DNA of 64,000 bases. It comes from an uncultured Gammaproteobacteria bacterium (GTDB taxonomy: Bacteria; Patescibacteriota; Microgenomatia; UBA10105; UBA927). Below, one piece after another: positions 40,366-63,883 of the stretch. The notes below the pieces were generated by a model, which was given only the letters and a program-made list of their open reading frames with translations, did no database searches and was not told where the DNA came from. Where the stretch lies: the NCBI GenBank assembly GCA_964349125.1, contig CAYGFH010000001.1:772801-836800 (forward strand). The letters run 5' to 3'. The translations under genes were made by a program, and so were the position numbers. Within the stretch, counting starts at the first letter, position 1. The number at the start of each line of letters is the position of its first letter.

Positions 40366-40441
40366 TGGGCCCGAAGTTTACCTGGTTGAACGCTTCATTT
40401 GCAATGAAGAGGTAGTCGGTTCGAGTCCGATCGGGTCCACC
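40366..40441 (+). tRNA. tRNA-Ala (anticodon UGC), CCA encoded
   Basis: Full cloverleaf folded by hand. Acceptor GGGCCCG/CGGGTCC with G3:U70, D-arm GTTT/GAAC, anticodon loop TTTGCAA, T-loop TTCGAGT, A73, CCA. Confidence 0.9.
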
Positions 40442-40706: not shown

Positions 40707-40764
40707 TAAAATGAACAATGGCCATCCCGCCGCCGAGGCGAGGATGGATCTTTTGTTCTCTGCA

Positions 40765-44095
<3,331 letters not shown>

Positions 44096-44325
44096 AACAA
44101 AGGTTTGATCCCCGATTATATCGGGGTGAAACTCTGTTCAGATACGAATTTTCTGTGTAGGAGCCATTTTGGTTATCCCTTACGGAGCAATTACTTGAGT
44201 GTGTGATGTCATTTACAAAATTTATATGAAGATCTCTGAAGGTATCCCGTTTCACGGGATAGTTCACAGTATGCTTTTTCTCTAGGAATCGAAAAAGCAA
44301 CTGTTCACTAACCGCTTTAGAGTCT

Positions 44326-44443
44326 TCCAGTCTTTTGAGCGACGTGGTACCACCCGATCCCTTTCCGAACTCGGAAGTGAAACGCGTTAGCGCCGACAAT
44401 ACTTGATTCGCGAGAATCTGGGAATATAGGTCAAGGCTGGGGG
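44326..44443 (+). rRNA. 5S ribosomal RNA
   Basis: CCGAACTCGGAAGTGAAACGCGTTAGCGCCGA loop C/helix III consensus. Helix I CCAGTCTT/AAGGCTGG. Confidence 0.8.
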
Positions 44444-57065: not shown

Positions 57066-58157
57066 ATGAAGCGAGACTCATACCGATTTTTAGCGTACAT
57101 ACTCATTATTGCTGTATGTTCTTTGAGTATGTTTCCGTTTTCTTCGATTGTTCAAGCAGGCACATTGACTCCAGCGAAGGTAACTATTTCGGATTCACGG
57201 GCAGGGAATGCCTCCACGACCTATGATTTTGCATTCACTACGTCAGTAACTACATCCATAAAACAACTGAATGTTGTGTTTTGTACCACGGCATCAGGAG
57301 CATGTTCGACACCGACCGGGATAGATACGACAGGAGCAACAAGAGCGAGTGATAACGTTGCAGGAACAGGGAGAACTGATGATTTCACAGGAAACGGAAC
57401 ACTATCAACGGTGATCACGACTCCCGCATCACAAGCCACACAGGCCGTAACTGTATCCTACACAGGGATAACCAATCCGACGACCACCAACACTACATTT
57501 TTTGCACGCATAACCACATACTCTGACACCGGGTCAACGGTGATTGATACGGCTTCCGTCGCGTTTGCTATTCTCACAAGTACGTCAATCGCTGTAAGTG
57601 CCTCTGTTGATTCCACATTTACGTTTTCGGTTGCGGCAGCCAATTCAGGAAGCGTGAATGGTGCATCGATTGATATAACAACTTCTACTGCAAACACCAT
57701 TCCATTCGGCACGCTCTCGTCAGGAGTGCCGAAAGTAGCAGCTCATGATCTCTCTGTGGTATCAAACGCATTAGGGGGATACACTATTACCGTAAAAGCG
57801 TTAGCAGATCCACCGCTTGTTGATGCCTCTAATAATATTGATAAGTTTAGCGGTACTAATGACACTCCAACGACCTGGTCGTCACCGGCCGGATCATCGG
57901 CGAATGTAAACACAGGGTTTTTCGGATACACGACGAACGATGCATCACTTGGGACCGGAACAGCAACCCGATTTACGGGCTCCGGAGGCAATAAATGGGC
58001 CGGGACAACAACGTCACCGCTTGAAGTGGCATATAGTGCCGTAGGGGTATCGTCTGCGGAAGTAACTCGTGTCGGATGGCAAGCTGAAGTAAACGGACTC
58101 CAGCCAGCCGGTGCATATACAGGCACTGTCGTGTTGGTGGCAACACCAACGTATTGA
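57066..58157 (+). CDS. secreted Thr/Ser-rich surface protein, WxL-like C-terminal domain (paralog 1)
   Basis: Signal/TM, T/S-rich region, C-terminal GYTTND...RFT...GW.AEV...AGAYTGTVVLVATPTY block shared by three paralogs. Resemblance to WxL is tentative. Confidence 0.5.
   Translation: MKRDSYRFLAYILIIAVCSLSMFPFSSIVQAGTLTPAKVTISDSRAGNASTTYDFAFTTSVTTSIKQLNVVFCTTASGACSTPTGIDTTGATRASDNVAGTGRTDDFTGNGTLSTVITTPASQATQAVTVSYTGITNPTTTNTTFFARITTYSDTGSTVIDTASVAFAILTSTSIAVSASVDSTFTFSVAAANSGSVNGASIDITTSTANTIPFGTLSSGVPKVAAHDLSVVSNALGGYTITVKALADPPLVDASNNIDKFSGTNDTPTTWSSPAGSSANVNTGFFGYTTNDASLGTGTATRFTGSGGNKWAGTTTSPLEVAYSAVGVSSAEVTRVGWQAEVNGLQPAGAYTGTVVLVATPTY
57150..57460 (+). repeat. 311-bp segment identical between paralog 1 and paralog 2 (other copy 59213-59523)
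   Basis: Nucleotide identity as read by eye across the N-terminal coding halves. Antisense ORFs 57221-57439 and 59284-59502 have identical translations. Confidence 0.85.
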
Positions 58158-59083
58158 TCTTTATGAAACACTTTGTGTATACGTATCGTAATCTCCTGAC
58201 TTTTTTACTGTTGCTGGTGTCCGGAGGATTTTTCGTTGTCCGTTTGGGGATCGCACAGAATGCGGCAAGTTCGCAAACATTGGAAATTTCCCCTCCCAGC
58301 CAGGAAATAAAAGTTGATCCCGGTCAAACAGTAAAGATAAAGGCAAAGATCCGCAATCGTAGCGGAGAATCGCTCTCTATACTCGCACGAATAGAGGATT
58401 TTACTGCGTCAGGGGAGGGCGGACAGGTAGCACTTATAGAAAAAGGGCCGTATGCAATTTCTTCCTGGACTATCATTGATCAGCCGGCATTTACATTAAA
58501 GTCTGGAGAAACAAAAGAGATTGTGGCAACTGCATCTGTTCCTGTCGGTCTTGCCGGCGGGCGATATGGATCATTTGTTTTTTCTGCCGGAGGAGGGCAG
58601 GCAGGGGCTGGCACTGCTGCTGTATCGCAGGAAGTCGCCTCATTGTTTTTACTTCGTATTTCCGGACCAGTTTCAGAGGTGTTAACCGCTGATGCGTTTA
58701 CTATGCCATCGTTTGTCGAATTTGGCCCGGTGCCTATGACCGTAAAGTTCTCCAATACTGGAAACGTACATGTCAGGCCAAACGGACTAATTAATGTCCG
58801 AAATATGTTCGGAAAAACTGCTGCGGACGTGCTGTTTAAAGGGGAAAATGTATTTCCAGGAGCATCCCGCTCTCAAACAGTTACTCTCGATAAAACATGG
58901 CTATTCGGGCCGTATACAGCTCAGGCAGTGTTAACATATGGAAGTAAAAATGAATCTCTGACGATTACCTCTACCTTTTTTGCATTCCCACTGCGGATTG
59001 CAGTGGTATTGGGTATCGTTCTTGGTGTATTGTATATGATGAGACGCCGGTTGAAAAAAGCACTCAAGGCACTCGTGGGATAA
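58154..59083 (+). CDS. DUF916/DUF3324-like cell-surface protein with C-terminal membrane anchor (CscA-like)
   Basis: LEISPPSQEIKVDPGQTVKIKAKIRNRSGESL...IEDF block resembles DUF916. C-terminal TM followed by MMRRRLKKALK. Confidence 0.5.
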   Translation: MIFMKHFVYTYRNLLTFLLLLVSGGFFVVRLGIAQNAASSQTLEISPPSQEIKVDPGQTVKIKAKIRNRSGESLSILARIEDFTASGEGGQVALIEKGPYAISSWTIIDQPAFTLKSGETKEIVATASVPVGLAGGRYGSFVFSAGGGQAGAGTAAVSQEVASLFLLRISGPVSEVLTADAFTMPSFVEFGPVPMTVKFSNTGNVHVRPNGLINVRNMFGKTAADVLFKGENVFPGASRSQTVTLDKTWLFGPYTAQAVLTYGSKNESLTITSTFFAFPLRIAVVLGIVLGVLYMMRRRLKKALKALVG

Positions 59084-59092
59084 TCAATCAGT

Positions 59093-60220
59093 ATGAAGTA
59101 TTCTGCCAAAACTATTCATAAAAAAATCCACCATACTAAGAAAGTAAGCGCTATTGGTGTGCTTATTGTGTTGCTTGTGAGCGTACCCTTATTCGCTCAG
59201 CTATCCACGAAAGTTCAAGCAGGCACATTGACTCCAGCGAAGGTAACTATTTCGGATTCACGGGCAGGGAATGCCTCCACGACCTATGATTTTGCATTCA
59301 CTACGTCAGTAACTACATCCATAAAACAACTGAATGTTGTGTTTTGTACCACGGCATCAGGAGCATGTTCGACACCGACCGGGATAGATACGACAGGAGC
59401 AACAAGAGCGAGTGATAACGTTGCAGGAACAGGGAGAACTGATGATTTCACAGGAAACGGAACACTATCAACGGTGATCACGACTCCCGCATCACAAGCC
59501 ACACAGGCCGTAACTGTATCCTATACAGGTATTACAAATCCTACGACGACAGATTCTACCTTTTTTGCCCGCGTGACAACATATTCTGACACCGGGTCAA
59601 CGGTGATTGATTCAGCGTCTGTCGCATTTGCCATTTTAACCACAACATCTATAGCCGTTACCGCATCGGTAGCATCAACGTTTACGTTTTCTGTTGCTGC
59701 GGTGACAACAGGATTGGTCAACGGGGCGACAATCGACGTGACAAGTACCACCGCAAACACTATTCCATTTGGAACACTGTCATCTGCAACACCTAAAATA
59801 GCTTCTCATGATCTTACAGTCACGACAAATGCAGCGAATGGATACACTGTCACGGTCAAAGCGGCTGCAGATCCGCCACTTGTTGACAGTACGAATAATA
59901 TAGATAAATTCAGTGGTACGAACGCAACACCCACAACTTGGTCGTCACCAGCGGGTTCTAGTGCGAGCGTAAACACTGGATTTTTTGGATACACGACAAA
60001 CGATGCAACGCTTGGTACCGGGACAGCCGATCGGTTTACGAGTTCAGGAGGTAATAAATGGTCAGGTACAACCACATCGCCGCTTGAAGTGGCGTATAGT
60101 GCGACAGGTATCGGCTCTTCTGAAGTTACGCGGATAGGATGGCAAGCCGAGGTGAATGGATTGCAGCCGGCAGGAGCCTACACTGGCACAGTCGTTTTAG
60201 TCGCGACGCCGACTTATTAA
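59093..60220 (+). CDS. secreted Thr/Ser-rich surface protein, WxL-like (paralog 2)
   Basis: Same architecture and C-terminal block as 57066-58157. First 311 bp of the mature region are identical. Confidence 0.5.
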   Translation: MKYSAKTIHKKIHHTKKVSAIGVLIVLLVSVPLFAQLSTKVQAGTLTPAKVTISDSRAGNASTTYDFAFTTSVTTSIKQLNVVFCTTASGACSTPTGIDTTGATRASDNVAGTGRTDDFTGNGTLSTVITTPASQATQAVTVSYTGITNPTTTDSTFFARVTTYSDTGSTVIDSASVAFAILTTTSIAVTASVASTFTFSVAAVTTGLVNGATIDVTSTTANTIPFGTLSSATPKIASHDLTVTTNAANGYTVTVKAAADPPLVDSTNNIDKFSGTNATPTTWSSPAGSSASVNTGFFGYTTNDATLGTGTADRFTSSGGNKWSGTTTSPLEVAYSATGIGSSEVTRIGWQAEVNGLQPAGAYTGTVVLVATPTY

Positions 60221-60238: not shown

Positions 60239-60661
60239 ATGAATATGCCGCAACGTGCGCTCTATATACTCTTTGGCATCGCAATCGGATATGTGTTTCA
60301 TGATTTGGCTTATGACAGCAGTCAAAGCATTCTCAAAAGAATACATTTTATATCCAATAAATCCACGTCACAAACGGTACTCGGTGATGTGTCTGCCGAT
60401 CAGTTCATCACGTCTGTTGTGTACACCGGTAATCGATTTGAGCCTAGGACTGTACGAGTGCGGAAAGGAAACTATGTGGTTATTACTAACAGGAGTAACA
60501 CATCGCTCATGTGGTTGGTATCAGACATGCCTGGCGTTATGACGACACGCGGATATGCCGAAGGTGAACAATTCCAGTTCACATCCGGGCAGGTAGGGTC
60601 GTTCACTGTGTCTAATAAGCTGCTTCCTCAGTCAACACTTCGCATTACCGTGGATGAGTAA
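60239..60661 (+). CDS. membrane-anchored beta-rich hypothetical protein
   Basis: N-terminal TM. No recognised motif. Confidence 0.45.
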   Translation: MNMPQRALYILFGIAIGYVFHDLAYDSSQSILKRIHFISNKSTSQTVLGDVSADQFITSVVYTGNRFEPRTVRVRKGNYVVITNRSNTSLMWLVSDMPGVMTTRGYAEGEQFQFTSGQVGSFTVSNKLLPQSTLRITVDE

Positions 60662-60822
60662 TATGCCACTTTACGCTTGAATTCACAGCTGTCTTTGCGG
60701 GAATAATTTCTCGAGACAAACTGAGTAACAACACAATTTTTGGTTAAAATAATAAGCACTCATATTAGAATTCTGATATGTGTAAAAAAAATCTAACACA
60801 TATACCGCACATTATGTGCAGC

Positions 60823-60855
60823 AGTTAGTGTATAGATTATATCTATACACTAACT
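60823..60855. promoter_or_regulatory. 33-bp perfect palindrome (15-bp arms AGTTAGTGTATAGAT / ATCTATACACTAACT)
   Basis: Lies in a convergent intergenic region, next to a 13-nt palindrome GCACATTATGTGC at 60807-60819. Confidence 0.45.
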
Positions 60856-60890: not shown

Positions 60891-62246
60891 CTATGCGTCT
60901 TTATTATATTTATGAATGATCCGAAGTATTGTTCTATCTGAGACAGAAAGCTGTAACTGTTCTTTTATTTGCTTTGTCGTTAGATTCTTTTTTGAATAGA
61001 GCATACGTATGTGTCGAATGGTCTCCATGGATACAGATGACGTTCTGGTGTGGTGTGGGCGGGTTGATTTACGTGTTAGTGTTGCGTATTCAGGTAAAGA
61101 TACTGCCCTGTCTCTCCATCTATAAATTGTGGATCGATGTATGCCCAATAGAGTGGCCGTCTTTATCACCGAGCCATTCTGAGATTTCAACGTATCTATA
61201 ATCTGTTGGGGGGTCACACGAGACAAACCCTCAACAGATGACACCGCTCGGTTCTCTGGTGCTATTTGCACTGCACTCAAATCTTCAACAGGGGCGCTGT
61301 TGGATATACGTTCTTCTATAGAAGAATTTGATGATATTAATAGCTTGAATGCCTTGTATATATTTCGGCGTTTACGGATTATCCAAAGTGCCATACCTAT
61401 GAATAGAAGAGAGGAAATAAATATTCTATATGGGAAGATAACGAGGAGTGTAGTTTTAGTAATAGTTTCGCCATTTTCTATTCGAGATTTTATTGTTGCC
61501 TTATAAATGCCCCATTTGCTGTTTTGTATTGTAAATACGGTCTTCCAGGATCTGGATTTACCAGGTAATATTGTTTTCTCATCCAGTTCTGCTGCATCTG
61601 ATTGTCCCCACAACGGAGTTATTGTGAGCGTTGGTTTCGTTGAAAAATAATGAAGTGAATTATTCGTTATTCGCACAGTGCTAGTAATAGGCCCATGTTC
61701 GTATATCAGTTTTTCAAATTGAAACTGGGATATTACAGCCTTGTTCTTCTGAGATTCCTGTATGCCTATGTTTGCAAGCGTGACGACTCCTATTTTTGAC
61801 CCTATTGTTCCGTTGGGGTAGAGAGGCGTAAAGTATATGATCGCATAATACCCTCCTATAGGGACAGTGGAGGGAATAGCAATTTTGACGAAGAATTCGT
61901 GTGATTGACGGGCTGGAATAATGACATCAGGCTCCTCAATGGTAATCCATCGGGCAAGCGGCGAAATCTCAATAGTCGGATCAGGTGTGAACCCGGATAT
62001 CTCATCGGATGAGTCAAATCCCTCTATTGTTGCGCGTAACGGCATAGGTGCGTCTGTAAGGTTCTCAATAGAGATAGGGTAGAGATGCTTTGCACCAGGT
62101 TGCAGTTGTATTTTTAATATGACGGGTGACACGCGAAGTGATGAGGAAATAAAATTAAGCCCGGAAGCCTGCACAAGAGAGATCGGCCTGAGAAGTAGGC
62201 TCGCCAGCAACATGATAAAAAATGATGTATTTAGTATTATTTTCAT
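60891..62246 (-). CDS. DUF916-like extracellular domain + TM + cytoplasmic tandem HTH tail
   Basis: Signal peptide. LRVSPVILKIQLQPGAKHLYPISIENL (DUF916-like). TM FISSLLFIGMALWIIRKRR. C-terminal HTHs IHRSTIYRW and SDRTILRIIHKY. Confidence 0.55.
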   Translation of the reverse strand: MKIILNTSFFIMLLASLLLRPISLVQASGLNFISSSLRVSPVILKIQLQPGAKHLYPISIENLTDAPMPLRATIEGFDSSDEISGFTPDPTIEISPLARWITIEEPDVIIPARQSHEFFVKIAIPSTVPIGGYYAIIYFTPLYPNGTIGSKIGVVTLANIGIQESQKNKAVISQFQFEKLIYEHGPITSTVRITNNSLHYFSTKPTLTITPLWGQSDAAELDEKTILPGKSRSWKTVFTIQNSKWGIYKATIKSRIENGETITKTTLLVIFPYRIFISSLLFIGMALWIIRKRRNIYKAFKLLISSNSSIEERISNSAPVEDLSAVQIAPENRAVSSVEGLSRVTPQQIIDTLKSQNGSVIKTATLLGIHRSTIYRWRDRAVSLPEYATLTRKSTRPHHTRTSSVSMETIRHIRMLYSKKNLTTKQIKEQLQLSVSDRTILRIIHKYNKDA

Positions 62247-62260
62247 ATAGTTTTCACTAT

Positions 62261-63337
62261 TTAATATATGGGAACAACAACGTAGATAACGGTGTTGGTG
62301 TATGCTCCTGCCGGTGTGGTGGCGTCTCCTGTGACGCGATATGAAATATTGAATTGTTCGTTGACAACCGGATTGTTTTCTACAATATCTGTGTGATCCG
62401 CGACGGGGTCACCGGGAGTTGCTGTTGAAAACCCAGCATACTTCGGTCCGCCAAGCGTAAACCTATCGGCTGCGCCCCCGGCGAGTGACGTATCGTTGGT
62501 GGTGTATCCGAACCCAGTACCAGTCCATGCTGTGGGTGATCCGTTTGTCCCTGCGTAATCGACGATAGTATTGGATTCAAACGTGAGTGGGCCAGTTTCG
62601 CGGCCATACACTGTATACCCGTTGTATGCATTTGTGGAAGTTGTAAGTGTCGTAGTTTTACTGCTGTCGGTATAAGAATTTGAAGAGTCCAATGTGTTAA
62701 ATGTGAGTGTTTCGGAGGAGATACCAAACGTTAATGAAGGGACAGATGTTGTGGCGCTTGATGTCGGTCCAAATCGAGATTCAGTAAAGTTGCCCCATTT
62801 ACTCTTGACCTTTATTTTATATGTTGTATTTTGTTTTAATCCTCTGACAAACTCACCTGTCGCGCCGCCCCAGTTGCCATATGTTTGCCAATCTTCCTGT
62901 CCAAGAGTTATGTCTATCGTGTTGTCGTCCTGAACAAACCGTGTCGTTGTAAAGTCGTCATCTGAAATAGCGATAGCGTACAGTGCATCTGCAGGTCCGG
63001 CACCATTTGTGATAATAAATTTTAATCTATCGTAATTTATTGCCGGGTTAGTGAATATGGGAGCTGGAGGGGTATTTGCCTGTAACGTTTCTATAAGTCC
63101 GCCGTTTACTGAATAATTTGTTGATGCAGGATTTCCAAATTCCAATCCTCCTACATAACCAAACAGAGAGAAATTGTCCGAGCTGCCTGAGTCAATACCT
63201 CCTGAACCGAAGTCATACTGAGTCAGTTCAAAGTTCGTGCTTGTTGGTCCGGCAATGACTTTCGTTGAAGTAATCAAAAAAAACGATACGAACAGACTGC
63301 ACGTAATTGAGAATCCAAAAATATTTTTCATACGCAT
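62261..63337 (-). CDS. secreted surface protein, WxL-like C-terminal block (paralog 3)
   Basis: TAWTGTGFGYTTNDTSLAGGAADRFT and AGAYTNTVIYVVVPIY align with the other two paralogs. Confidence 0.5.
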   Translation of the reverse strand: MRMKNIFGFSITCSLFVSFFLITSTKVIAGPTSTNFELTQYDFGSGGIDSGSSDNFSLFGYVGGLEFGNPASTNYSVNGGLIETLQANTPPAPIFTNPAINYDRLKFIITNGAGPADALYAIAISDDDFTTTRFVQDDNTIDITLGQEDWQTYGNWGGATGEFVRGLKQNTTYKIKVKSKWGNFTESRFGPTSSATTSVPSLTFGISSETLTFNTLDSSNSYTDSSKTTTLTTSTNAYNGYTVYGRETGPLTFESNTIVDYAGTNGSPTAWTGTGFGYTTNDTSLAGGAADRFTLGGPKYAGFSTATPGDPVADHTDIVENNPVVNEQFNISYRVTGDATTPAGAYTNTVIYVVVPIY

Positions 63338-63463
63338 GTGTATTCATCACAGTATCATATACATTTGCGACATTCAATACTATAAATTACTGCGATGTGG
63401 CAAATGTATATGTCATACCCAATTCGGAAGAAATGAACACACATGGGTGAAGTCTGAGAGGTA

Positions 63464-63883
63464 TTAGTATGGGAGTGTGAACGCTCTGGTGCCGAAGAGG
63501 AAGGGGAAGTATTCGAACGTACAGATTATGGGAGTTTGAGATCTGTCACAGACTATGTTTGTTATGGCCTGTTCAAGTGTTAAATGTGCACTTGTGGTCG
63601 TTATAACAAGCTTTGCTGCTGACTTCATGAGCGGTTCATCAACATACATGATATCTATAGTGCTTGTGAAGATAGTTTGAAGGAACTCACGGGCGATGGA
63701 ATGGCTCATGTGCGTCGCGATACGTTCATAGGTAGACATGATTGTGGAAGGTGACGTGTAGAGATGGTATCCTTCCTGCGCAAAAAATCGAAAATATGCC
63801 CCGGCCATCTGGTGTTTGCTATCTGAACGGTCTATGAACGCGTACATTGCCGATTGTGTAATATATACTTTCTTGCTACCCAT
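63464..63883 (-). CDS. hypothetical protein
   Basis: ORF only. Confidence 0.4.
   Translation of the reverse strand: MGSKKVYITQSAMYAFIDRSDSKHQMAGAYFRFFAQEGYHLYTSPSTIMSTYERIATHMSHSIAREFLQTIFTSTIDIMYVDEPLMKSAAKLVITTTSAHLTLEQAITNIVCDRSQTPIICTFEYFPFLFGTRAFTLPY

Follow-up and report, generated by a model that had tools for sequence, protein, structure and literature searches.

A Pam-like pilus chaperone with a transposase-derived DNA-binding tail: a candidate membrane-tethered autoregulator in a CPR bacterium

Introduction

The 64-kb stretch of DNA analyzed here (contig CAYGFH010000001.1, assembly GCA_964349125.1; hereafter the window) carries on its minus strand a gene at 60891–62246 whose product, referred to below as the fusion protein, combines a pilus chaperone-like ectodomain, a single transmembrane (TM) helix and a tail that resembles the DNA-binding domain of a transposase. 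A first-pass annotation, which had the coordinates and the length of 451 residues exactly right, had described the protein as a putative one-component TM regulator at a WxL/Csc surface locus. The regulator proposal stays the best reading, in which the protein would bind DNA and signal across the membrane; the locus itself is not a WxL/Csc one and appears to be a Pam-like pilus locus of a candidate phyla radiation (CPR) bacterium. The interpretation best supported by the evidence presented below, and one that we hold with moderate confidence, is that of a membrane-tethered autoregulator of the operon in which the gene resides.

Two bodies of published work frame this interpretation. Pam pili were described in CPR bacteria, where PamC and PamD, proposed to be PapD/FimC-like chaperones, carry an unusual C-terminal TM anchor, PamR is proposed to be an RbmA-like anchor, and Microgenomatia homologs are reported at ~21% identity (Troman et al., bioRxiv 10.64898/2026.03.03.709456). 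TM transcription regulators, for their part, are widespread, use more than 100 types of DNA-binding domain, and include examples in which that domain is C-terminal (PMC10269533).

Results

Organization of the Locus and Architecture of the Fusion Protein

The fusion gene follows a pilin gene with which it is probably cotranscribed, and the pair is present in every fusion locus. The gene order HTH_17 protein (92 residues), PIN-like protein (139 residues), pilin (~356 residues) and fusion protein is kept among homologs down to 42% identity, and a convergent second operon encodes a 140-residue protein, a pilin, a short chaperone, another pilin and a DUF2298 protein. The products of the locus are all secreted or membrane proteins.

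From its N terminus, the fusion protein comprises a signal peptide, two beta-sandwich domains, one TM helix, an RKRR cluster, a linker and two three-helix helix-turn-helix (HTH) modules (Table 1). By Kyte–Doolittle hydropathy it contains only two hydrophobic segments, at residues 1–27 and ~265–292, the latter followed by RKRR, in agreement with the signal peptide and the TM helix with KRR stop-transfer residues that had been noted before; equivalent N termini are found in all members of the family, and the signal peptide would be cleaved at VQA|S. In 14 of 14 homologs, 3–6 lysines and arginines lie within 16 residues after the TM helix versus 1–2 before it, and the region that follows is strongly basic (pI 10.3–11; net charge of the tail +9 to +21), so that all 14 family members conform to the positive-inside rule. 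This pattern points to a type I topology, in which the C-terminal tail would be cytoplasmic.

An AlphaFold2 model of the full-length protein, built with 40 homologs (mean predicted local distance difference test score, pLDDT, 80.6), features beta-sandwiches at residues 37–159 and 170–270, a long helix at 273–304, disorder at 311–337 and three-helix bundles at 346–383 and 407–450 (pLDDT 83–97), and a model of the tail alone agrees with it (pLDDT 83.9). Both HTH-like segments recognized in the first pass are real, an HTH fold being returned by a cluster of Pfam matches, by the two confident AlphaFold bundles and by the fold search discussed below.

The Ectodomain Resembles Membrane-Anchored Pilus Chaperones

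The ectodomain had been called DUF916-like and compared with the product of the gene at 58154–59083. The comparison is sound: residues 34–305 align with this short paralog (BLASTP, 23% identity, E 4e-12), which stops right after its anchor. The DUF916 assignment survives at the level of the fold only. The solved WxLIP is the top structural match, and the ectodomain shares its geometry of two perpendicular Ig-like domains followed by a TM helix, but the sequence relationship is not significant: the short paralog matches PF06030 (WxLIP_PGBD) with E 0.036 and 14.5 bits against a cut-off of 27.3, the family profile matches EfmWxLIP1 with E 0.38 in a search of PDB sequences, the fusion protein has no match to PF06030 or PF11797, and a Pfam scan of its N-terminal 340 residues returns none. 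Both ectodomain domains also superpose on chaperone-usher chaperones over ~170–180 residues at ~4 Å, the partners CupB2, SafB, YadV, EcpB, CsuC and PapD giving 3.6–4.6 Å over both domains. An RbmA/PamR-like anchor was considered as well and dropped, as RbmA aligns over one domain only.

A Pfam scan finds no WxL domain in the neighboring proteins. In an NCBIfam scan that covered the flanking pilin-like genes at 57066–58157 and 62261–63337, both match NF058581 (32.4 and 30.3 bits vs. a cut-off of 55) and one of them also NF058579 (32.8 bits vs. 240); the models concerned, ‘Pam pilus system pilin subunit’ and ‘CPR-type pilus protein PamT’, are thus matched below cut-off. A third pilin-like gene, at 59093–60220, is a paralog of the other pilins, and PDB sequence searches with two pilins give no match. 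Because of these Pam-model neighbors, a CPR-typical intron in the 23S rRNA gene and the TM-anchored PamC and PamD of the preprint, the best interpretation of the ectodomain is that of a membrane-anchored pilus chaperone of the PamC/PamD type, encoded in a Pam-like locus that has diverged. Compared by fold and published description, the two share a signal peptide, a two-domain PapD/FimC-like fold and a TM anchor, and the loci share adjoining pilin genes, putatively of Pam type in the window, a CPR genome and two such proteins each. The fusion protein differs in the ~160 further cytoplasmic residues with a bipartite HTH that follow its anchor, and the Pam preprint mentions no HTH, DNA binding or transcription (bioRxiv 10.64898/2026.03.03.709456).

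The Tail Derives from the DNA-Binding Domain of an IS481-Like Transposase

Pfam HTH_23 matches residues 357–380 with 30.8 bits, which exceeds the gathering score of 24.6; HTH_8, HTH_28, HTH_29, HTH_32 (373–443) and HTH_Tnp_Tc3_2_like (424–446) add further matches within residues 345–448. Residues 349–448 align to positions 5–106 of the NCBIfam IS481 (NF033577) and IS630 transposase models, the IS481 model scoring 36.7 bits against a cut-off of 224. In a fold search with the tail model, the best solved match is the bipartite DNA-binding domain of the Tc3 transposase on DNA (1u78; E 4e-4, 26% identity, both HTH modules aligned), followed by Mos1, the Pax6 paired domain, IstA, CENP-B and the Mu transposase; a sequence-profile search of the PDB has the same top match, with HTH2 aligning to residues 57–103.

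Outside the fusions, the best matches of the tail profile are IS481-like transposases with an rve domain and N-terminal fragments, matched from residue 2. The tail and these transposases have in common the motifs LGIHRSTVYRW and RKST(K/R)PH, and an RKSTRP-type motif is also present in P0042–P0049 and P0087; the N terminus of the latter is 38% identical to the tail (E 3e-11), and that of P0071 is 33% identical. The C termini of the more divergent fusions, ...NLTRKYK or ...KLVRPYK, coincide with the expected start of the catalytic domain. The fusion protein, which ends at HTH2, contains no rve match, no rve-like open reading frame lies downstream, the 3′ intergenic regions of the fusion genes (41–245 bp) hold no rve remnant, and neither an IS481 element nor an rve domain nor a free-standing copy of the tail occurs in the window or in the homologous loci.

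By these sequence and fold comparisons, the tail is not the Fis/resolvase-like segment originally proposed but comes from an IS481-like transposase, of which it keeps the bipartite, paired/Tc3-like DNA-binding domain and lacks the catalytic one. The N-terminal domains of IS481, IS630 and Tc1-mariner transposases likewise consist of two three-helix HTH modules with a basic RKSTRP linker; unlike those transposases, the tail has no rve/DDE core and no flanking terminal repeats, is fused to a membrane protein, and is inherited vertically in fixed synteny.

A separate protein, P0102 (261 residues), joins a response-regulator receiver domain to an IS481-type double HTH (HTH_28/HTH_32/LZ_Tnp_IS481); it is an independent recruitment of the double HTH as a regulatory output and a precedent for such use. 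The motif GIHRSTVY, sought in viral contigs, gave nothing beyond an unrelated phage HTH.

A Single Fusion Event with Conserved HTH Modules

A search of 5.8 billion protein clusters recovers the same architecture in 14 proteins (422–455 residues, 42–100% identity; 14 clusters at 90% identity), together with ~25 tail-less orthologs of ~300 residues. In an exhaustive HMMER search of 1.84 billion representatives, only four clusters at 50% identity carry the tail at the C terminus of a ~450-residue protein, and a scan of genome contigs with back-translated family patterns, which were narrow, returned two loci (L005 and L006). Orthologs with the same fusion thus exist, and since they are 14 distinct in-frame proteins from different assemblies, with conserved synteny and down to 42% identity, an assembly or gene-calling artifact is excluded. 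In a tree of the ectodomain, the fusions form one clade nested among the tail-less orthologs (bootstrap 63/100), which indicates that the fusion was gained once.

Among the fusions, mean pairwise identity is highest in the ectodomain (59–66%), lower in HTH1 (54%), the stretch between the two modules (48%) and HTH2 (46%), and only 11% in the linker. Residues G358, L367, H370, R371, T373, R376 and W377 of HTH1 and S436, R438, T439 and R442 of HTH2 are invariant in all 14. The tail is under selection, because its HTH modules keep 46–54% identity against 11% in the linker and the recognition-helix residues and RKSTRP do not vary; conservation, monophyly and stable synteny together exclude a decaying insertion sequence (IS) remnant or an assembly artifact. 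The clade is small (four clusters at 50% identity), and its function is a proposal drawn from such comparisons.

A Candidate Operator Upstream of the Pilin-Fusion Operon

When intergenic regions are compared across loci, an inverted repeat, ACATTTGCNAC...GTNGCAAATGT, emerges ahead of the pilin-fusion operon (Table 1). Its 18-bp arm length in the window is reached by 0 of 300 shuffles, and five of the six fusion lineages have the repeat, whereas three tail-less loci have none. The proximal arm, GTCGCAAATGTATATGR, takes up, in four lineages, the whole 17–18-nt spacer between −35-like (TTGAAT, TTGCAT, TTGTGT and TTACAT) and −10-like hexamers (TACTGT, TACGTT, TACTTT and TATGTT). The window's layout of −35, 17–18 nt and −10 recurs in L004, L014, L001 and L013, and the variant repeat of L013 (see Discussion) is seated likewise. 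What is conserved in the arms is their sequence, not their complementarity, and the distance between them ranges from 19 to 46 bp, which favors a protein-binding site over an RNA hairpin.

The 33-bp palindrome suggested in the first pass as a target of the tail fares less well. It is absent from L001, L003 and L004, its half-site does not recur in the window, and it lies 3′ of both convergent genes, in a run of three consecutive hairpins (60775–60855; RNA fold z-score −5.95). The region probably marks a bidirectional transcript end, and the palindrome is probably a transcript-end hairpin and not an operator.

Two further conserved elements are found nearby. Upstream of the HTH_17 (92 residues)/PIN-like (139 residues; window 63464–63883) gene pair are three direct repeats of TTGTATAYTA phased at 10 bp (L007 3514–3543, the window equivalent lying just beyond 64000; L012 4630–4669; L010 14778–14807), probably the autoregulatory operator of this toxin-antitoxin-like pair. 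They track HTH_17 and occur in the tail-less L012 and L010 as well, whereas the inverted repeat does not. Between the convergent genes, at 60690–60705, is a conserved element, TGTCTTTGCGGGAATA (other strand TTCCCGCANAGAC; also written TTCCCGCAAAGAC), which is present in every fusion locus with a readable intergenic region, is absent from the tail-less loci, and shares a CGCAAA core with the operator half-site.

The Half-Site Recurs at the Ends of a Related Insertion Element

The ends of L016, a 969-bp contig with an IS481-like element that encodes P0087, match the inner portion of the half-site, ATTTGCNAC. The left end reads GGTAACACG-ACATTTGCTAC-ACTA-GTAGCAAATGT-ATG, the ATG being the start codon, and the right end, on the complementary strand, GGTAACACT-ACTTATGCGAC: two exact half-sites stand at the left end directly before the transposase ATG, and a one-mismatch copy is placed symmetrically at the right. 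The half-site therefore lies within the terminal inverted repeats of L016 and is duplicated in inverted orientation before the transposase gene. The N-terminal domain of a transposase is expected to bind the terminal inverted repeats of its element.

Away from the pilin-upstream repeat, two exact half-sites occur in 173.5 kb of unselected DNA (0.0115 per kb), a background against which two exact copies in 0.97 kb have a Poisson probability of ~6e-5. This recurrence in the terminal repeats of L016 suggests joint recruitment of the DNA-binding domain and its cognate sequence. The window holds no full terminal-repeat-like sequence, only the inner half-sites, 1.1 kb upstream of the fusion start codon. 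A motif-first scan of metagenomes yielded at least 120 loci, two of which have weak tail-like matches among the matches listed, the inverted half-site pattern being very common among unrelated hairpins.

Table 1. Positions of the fusion gene, its encoded segments and associated features in the window
Feature	Position	Strand	Evidence
Whole gene, chaperone-HTH fusion, 451 residues + stop	60891..62246	-	Open reading frame list, ATG start; 100% identical to P0001
Signal peptide, residues 1–27 (MKIILNTSFFIMLLASLLLRPISLVQA)	62166..62246	-	Kyte–Doolittle peak, AXA-like end VQA|S
Extracytoplasmic beta-sandwich domain 1, residues 34–160	61767..62147	-	AlphaFold2 strands mostly pLDDT >80; family identity 66%; WxLIP and PapD-like fold matches
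Extracytoplasmic beta-sandwich domain 2, residues 165–270	61437..61754	-	AlphaFold2 model; family identity 59%
Single TM helix, residues ~268–290	61377..61445	-	Hydropathy maximum 2.02 at residue 267; AlphaFold2 helix 273–304
RKRR stop-transfer cluster, residues 291–294	61365..61376	-	K/R count rises after TM helix
Predicted cytoplasmic linker, disordered, fast-evolving, residues 306–342	61221..61331	-	pLDDT <50 at 311–337; identity 11%; length 15–38
HTH module 1, residues 343–383, recognition helix HRSTIYRW	61098..61220	-	Pfam HTH_23, HTH_8, HTH_28; helices at 346–383
Inter-HTH motif RKSTRP, residues 392–397	61056..61073	-	Invariant in 14/14 fusions
HTH module 2, residues 407–451 (LSVSDRTILRII)	60894..61028	-	Pfam HTH_32, HTH_Tnp_Tc3_2_like; helices at 407–450
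Partner pilin gene, 358 residues, 14 nt upstream of fusion start	62261..63337	-	NCBIfam PamT residues 12–82, Pam_pilin_C 208–358, both below cut-off
Promoter-like TTGAAT-17-TACTGT upstream of pilin-fusion operon	63349..63377	-	Read from sequence; predicted
Proximal arm, candidate operator (ATGTCGCAAATGTATATG on - strand), in promoter spacer	63356..63373	.	Conserved in window, L004, L014, L001, L003; also at left end of L016
Distal arm, candidate operator (CATATACATTTGCCACAT on - strand)	63395..63412	.	18-bp inverted repeat, 1 mismatch
Short paralog, 309 residues, same ectodomain and TM anchor, without tail, in convergent pilin operon	58154..59083	+	BLASTP
33-bp perfect palindrome	60823..60855	.	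3′ of the two convergent genes; first in a stack of three hairpins

Discussion

In light of these results, we propose that the fusion protein acts as a membrane-tethered autoregulator. Outside the membrane the ectodomain would serve as a chaperone for the adjacent pilin, while the tail, on a flexible tether of 15–38 residues, would bind the inverted half-sites in the promoter of its own operon. Because the proximal half-site fills the −35/−10 spacer, the bound tail would occlude RNA polymerase and thus impose negative autoregulation from the membrane. Two half-sites would call for two tails, and therefore clustering of ectodomains or their loading with pilin could set operator occupancy and couple the assembly state of the pilus to the expression of both pilin and chaperone. 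We infer DNA binding at the candidate site, the sign of the regulation and signal coupling from the arrangement of these elements; the coupling of ectodomain state to occupancy, and with it signal transduction from the surface to DNA, is conjecture. Pilus assembly on the outside may in this manner directly control pilus gene expression on the inside. A more specific version, in which the IS481-like DNA-binding domain and the end sequence were domesticated together, so that the chaperone itself is the transcription factor and pilin loading or clustering sets the occupancy of a transposon-end-derived operator, is a tentative proposal that we consider possible rather than probable.

Several observations weigh against this interpretation. 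In L013, the sixth fusion lineage and the most divergent one, another inverted repeat, of 12–15 bp, takes the same position, the predicted promoter hexamers are weak matches, and the tail-less loci have no intergenic region before the pilin gene; the co-occurrence of repeat and tail is, moreover, phylogenetically confounded, because all fusion loci belong to one clade with a bootstrap of 63/100. The outer portion of the half-site, TGTATAT, is similar to the repeats that precede HTH_17, whose product could bind the operator half-sites instead of the tail. Lastly, the link to terminal repeats comes from one IS element, the only one with clearly readable ends; in a second element, L137 (P0071), the exact half-site was not found, in a contig that may miss the ends of the element.

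There are also alternatives in which the tail still binds DNA. It might do so primarily to keep the pilus locus close to the membrane (transertion), for local cotranslational secretion of pilin beside the chaperone, much as VtrA/VtrC and VtrB hold target loci at the membrane and localize the assembly of a secretion machine (PMC9977878). The uniformly secreted or membrane-bound products of the locus, with the candidate site in the same operon, would suit such a role; the proximal half-site, however, occupies the classic position of a repressor between −35 and −10, the gain from tethering may be small in tiny CPR cells, and locus capture is compatible with regulation as well, and we judge it an unlikely primary function. 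Similarly improbable in our estimate is that the inverted repeat is the operator of another regulator, such as the HTH_17 protein encoded two genes upstream, and that the tail has its targets elsewhere, perhaps acting as a transposition repressor on IS481 ends in other parts of the genome. The likeness of TGTATAT to the TTGTATAYTA repeats speaks for this view, and truncated N-terminal domains of transposases are known to inhibit transposition, but the tail-less loci with HTH_17 (L012 and L010) are devoid of the inverted repeat, the inner half-site matches the ends of an IS element that encodes a related domain, and the window contains no IS481-like gene or terminal repeat. More doubtful still is a precursor whose tail would be freed by regulated intramembrane or juxtamembrane proteolysis upon unloading or misfolding of the ectodomain and would then act as a soluble transcription factor. 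Regulated proteolysis controls membrane-bound regulators such as TcpP and anti-sigma factors, and the disordered, fast-evolving linker of 15–38 residues would be accessible to proteases, although the locus has no conserved gene for a site-2 or other protease and the linker no conserved cleavage motif.

Readings that would deny the protein either its DNA-binding function or its pilus context are much harder to sustain. A WxL/Csc-type surface anchor (DUF916/DUF3324) that signals the condition of a cell-wall complex could appeal to the WxLIP structure as top match and to the weak PF06030 match of the paralog. Against it stand nonsignificant sequence matches (E 0.036 and 0.38), a locus with Pam-type pilins and no WxL-domain protein, and the organism itself, a CPR bacterium, since WxL clusters are found almost entirely in Lactobacillales and Bacillales (PMC10599100). 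WxLIP proteins of Firmicutes (DUF916-DUF3324-TM; PMC10599100; PDB 9i1y, 9i25), in addition, end after the anchor and come from a different phylum, and their clusters differ from the window locus in having WxL partners. We regard this anchor as very improbable. Hardly credible is a tail that is the nonfunctional relic of an IS insertion by the chaperone gene, or a product of annotation or assembly: the tail is clearly transposase-derived and one source labels P0014 a ‘transposase-like protein’, yet the 14 in-frame homologs come from independent assemblies, conservation of the HTH modules almost equals that of the ectodomain in spite of a drifting linker, synteny is stable, and no rve remnant is left downstream. 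The conservation pattern effectively refutes the idea.

As a membrane-tethered autoregulator, the fusion protein would join a class that is not itself new: it has the TM helix and, in the same polypeptide, a DNA-binding domain placed on the cytoplasmic side by sequence rules. ToxR, TcpP, CadC and VtrA are likewise single-pass proteins in which an extracytoplasmic domain is joined to a cytoplasmic DNA-binding domain (PMC10269533), and like them the fusion protein probably acts on DNA while membrane-bound. It differs in its C-terminal DNA-binding domain, its type I polarity with a signal peptide, a transposase-type double HTH in place of the OmpR-type winged helix, and a pilus chaperone as sensor; it has no Trans_reg_C match, its tail being of HTH_23/HTH_32 type. 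The first-pass annotation was correct that the domain order is opposite to that of ToxR and CadC, and C-terminal DNA-binding domains have precedents among TM regulators (PMC10269533). SETMAR offers a parallel for the tail, as a transposase DNA-binding domain joined to a host protein with a transposon-end-like binding site kept (PMC9062482). SETMAR is eukaryotic, whereas here the host protein is a bacterial membrane chaperone and the candidate site lies in the promoter of the gene itself. The proposed logic, in which the genes of a machine are transcribed according to whether its assembly chaperone is free or loaded, is that of the type III chaperone systems IpgC-MxiE and SicA-InvF and of Cpx, which senses unchaperoned Pap subunits. 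Those systems, to which there is no homology, employ separate cytoplasmic proteins or a two-component relay, in contrast to the one membrane-spanning polypeptide considered here.

What would be new, then, is the use of a pilus chaperone as sensor, type I polarity with a C-terminal DNA-binding domain and, apparently, a transposase double HTH with a candidate co-opted transposon-end site. Pam pili were described only in 2026. If domain and end sequence were indeed domesticated together, the fusion protein would be the first regulatory component of CPR Pam pili and one of few cases in bacteria where a transposase has contributed both its DNA-binding domain and its terminal repeat to host gene control. 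It would also extend the TM regulator class to a type I, chaperone-sensor design. CPR bacteria are mostly uncultured, and the circuit, made up of a single polypeptide, a single candidate operator and a single partner pilin, is unusually accessible because it can be rebuilt in Escherichia coli.

Additional Features of the Locus and Its Surroundings

The CPR-typical intron is a group I intron (RF00028, 65.8 bits) at 43453–43722 within the 23S rRNA gene (40759–44096), a feature typical of CPR/Patescibacteria; a 5S rRNA gene lies at 44326–44442 and a tRNA gene at 40367–40439. The pilin paralogs at 57066–58157 and 59093–60220 share a 311-bp tract that is 100% identical (57150–57460 and 59213–59523), beyond which identity falls to 64–88%, in what looks like recent gene conversion between tandem pilin genes.

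The gene at 60239–60661 is the last of the convergent pilin operon in all fusion loci with a readable flank except L004; its 140-residue product shows weak similarity to cupredoxin/nitrosocyanin (E 0.15 and 0.0055). In the tail-less loci an extra gene for a protein of 419–441 residues follows the short chaperone (L012 7433–8692; L011 7951–9276), a position at which the fusion loci have nothing; the extra protein has weak, nonsignificant membrane-protein matches, no significant Pfam match and no tail-like HTH.

The two loci returned by the contig scan, L005 (CAYSEV010000024.1) and L006 (CAYHHA010000018.1), contain a Pam-like, CPR-type gene set as in the window, and the ‘uncultured Gammaproteobacteria’ titles of their records may be wrong. 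An 18-mer, ATACTATATTAATTAACG, abuts the start codon of a divergent gene for a large, SH3_3-containing surface protein at L007 3451–3468 and recurs in L001, L003, L004, L006, L008 and L009, with one mismatch in L013; it is thus identical in nearly all fusion loci, though the adjoining surface proteins are only 42–55% identical.

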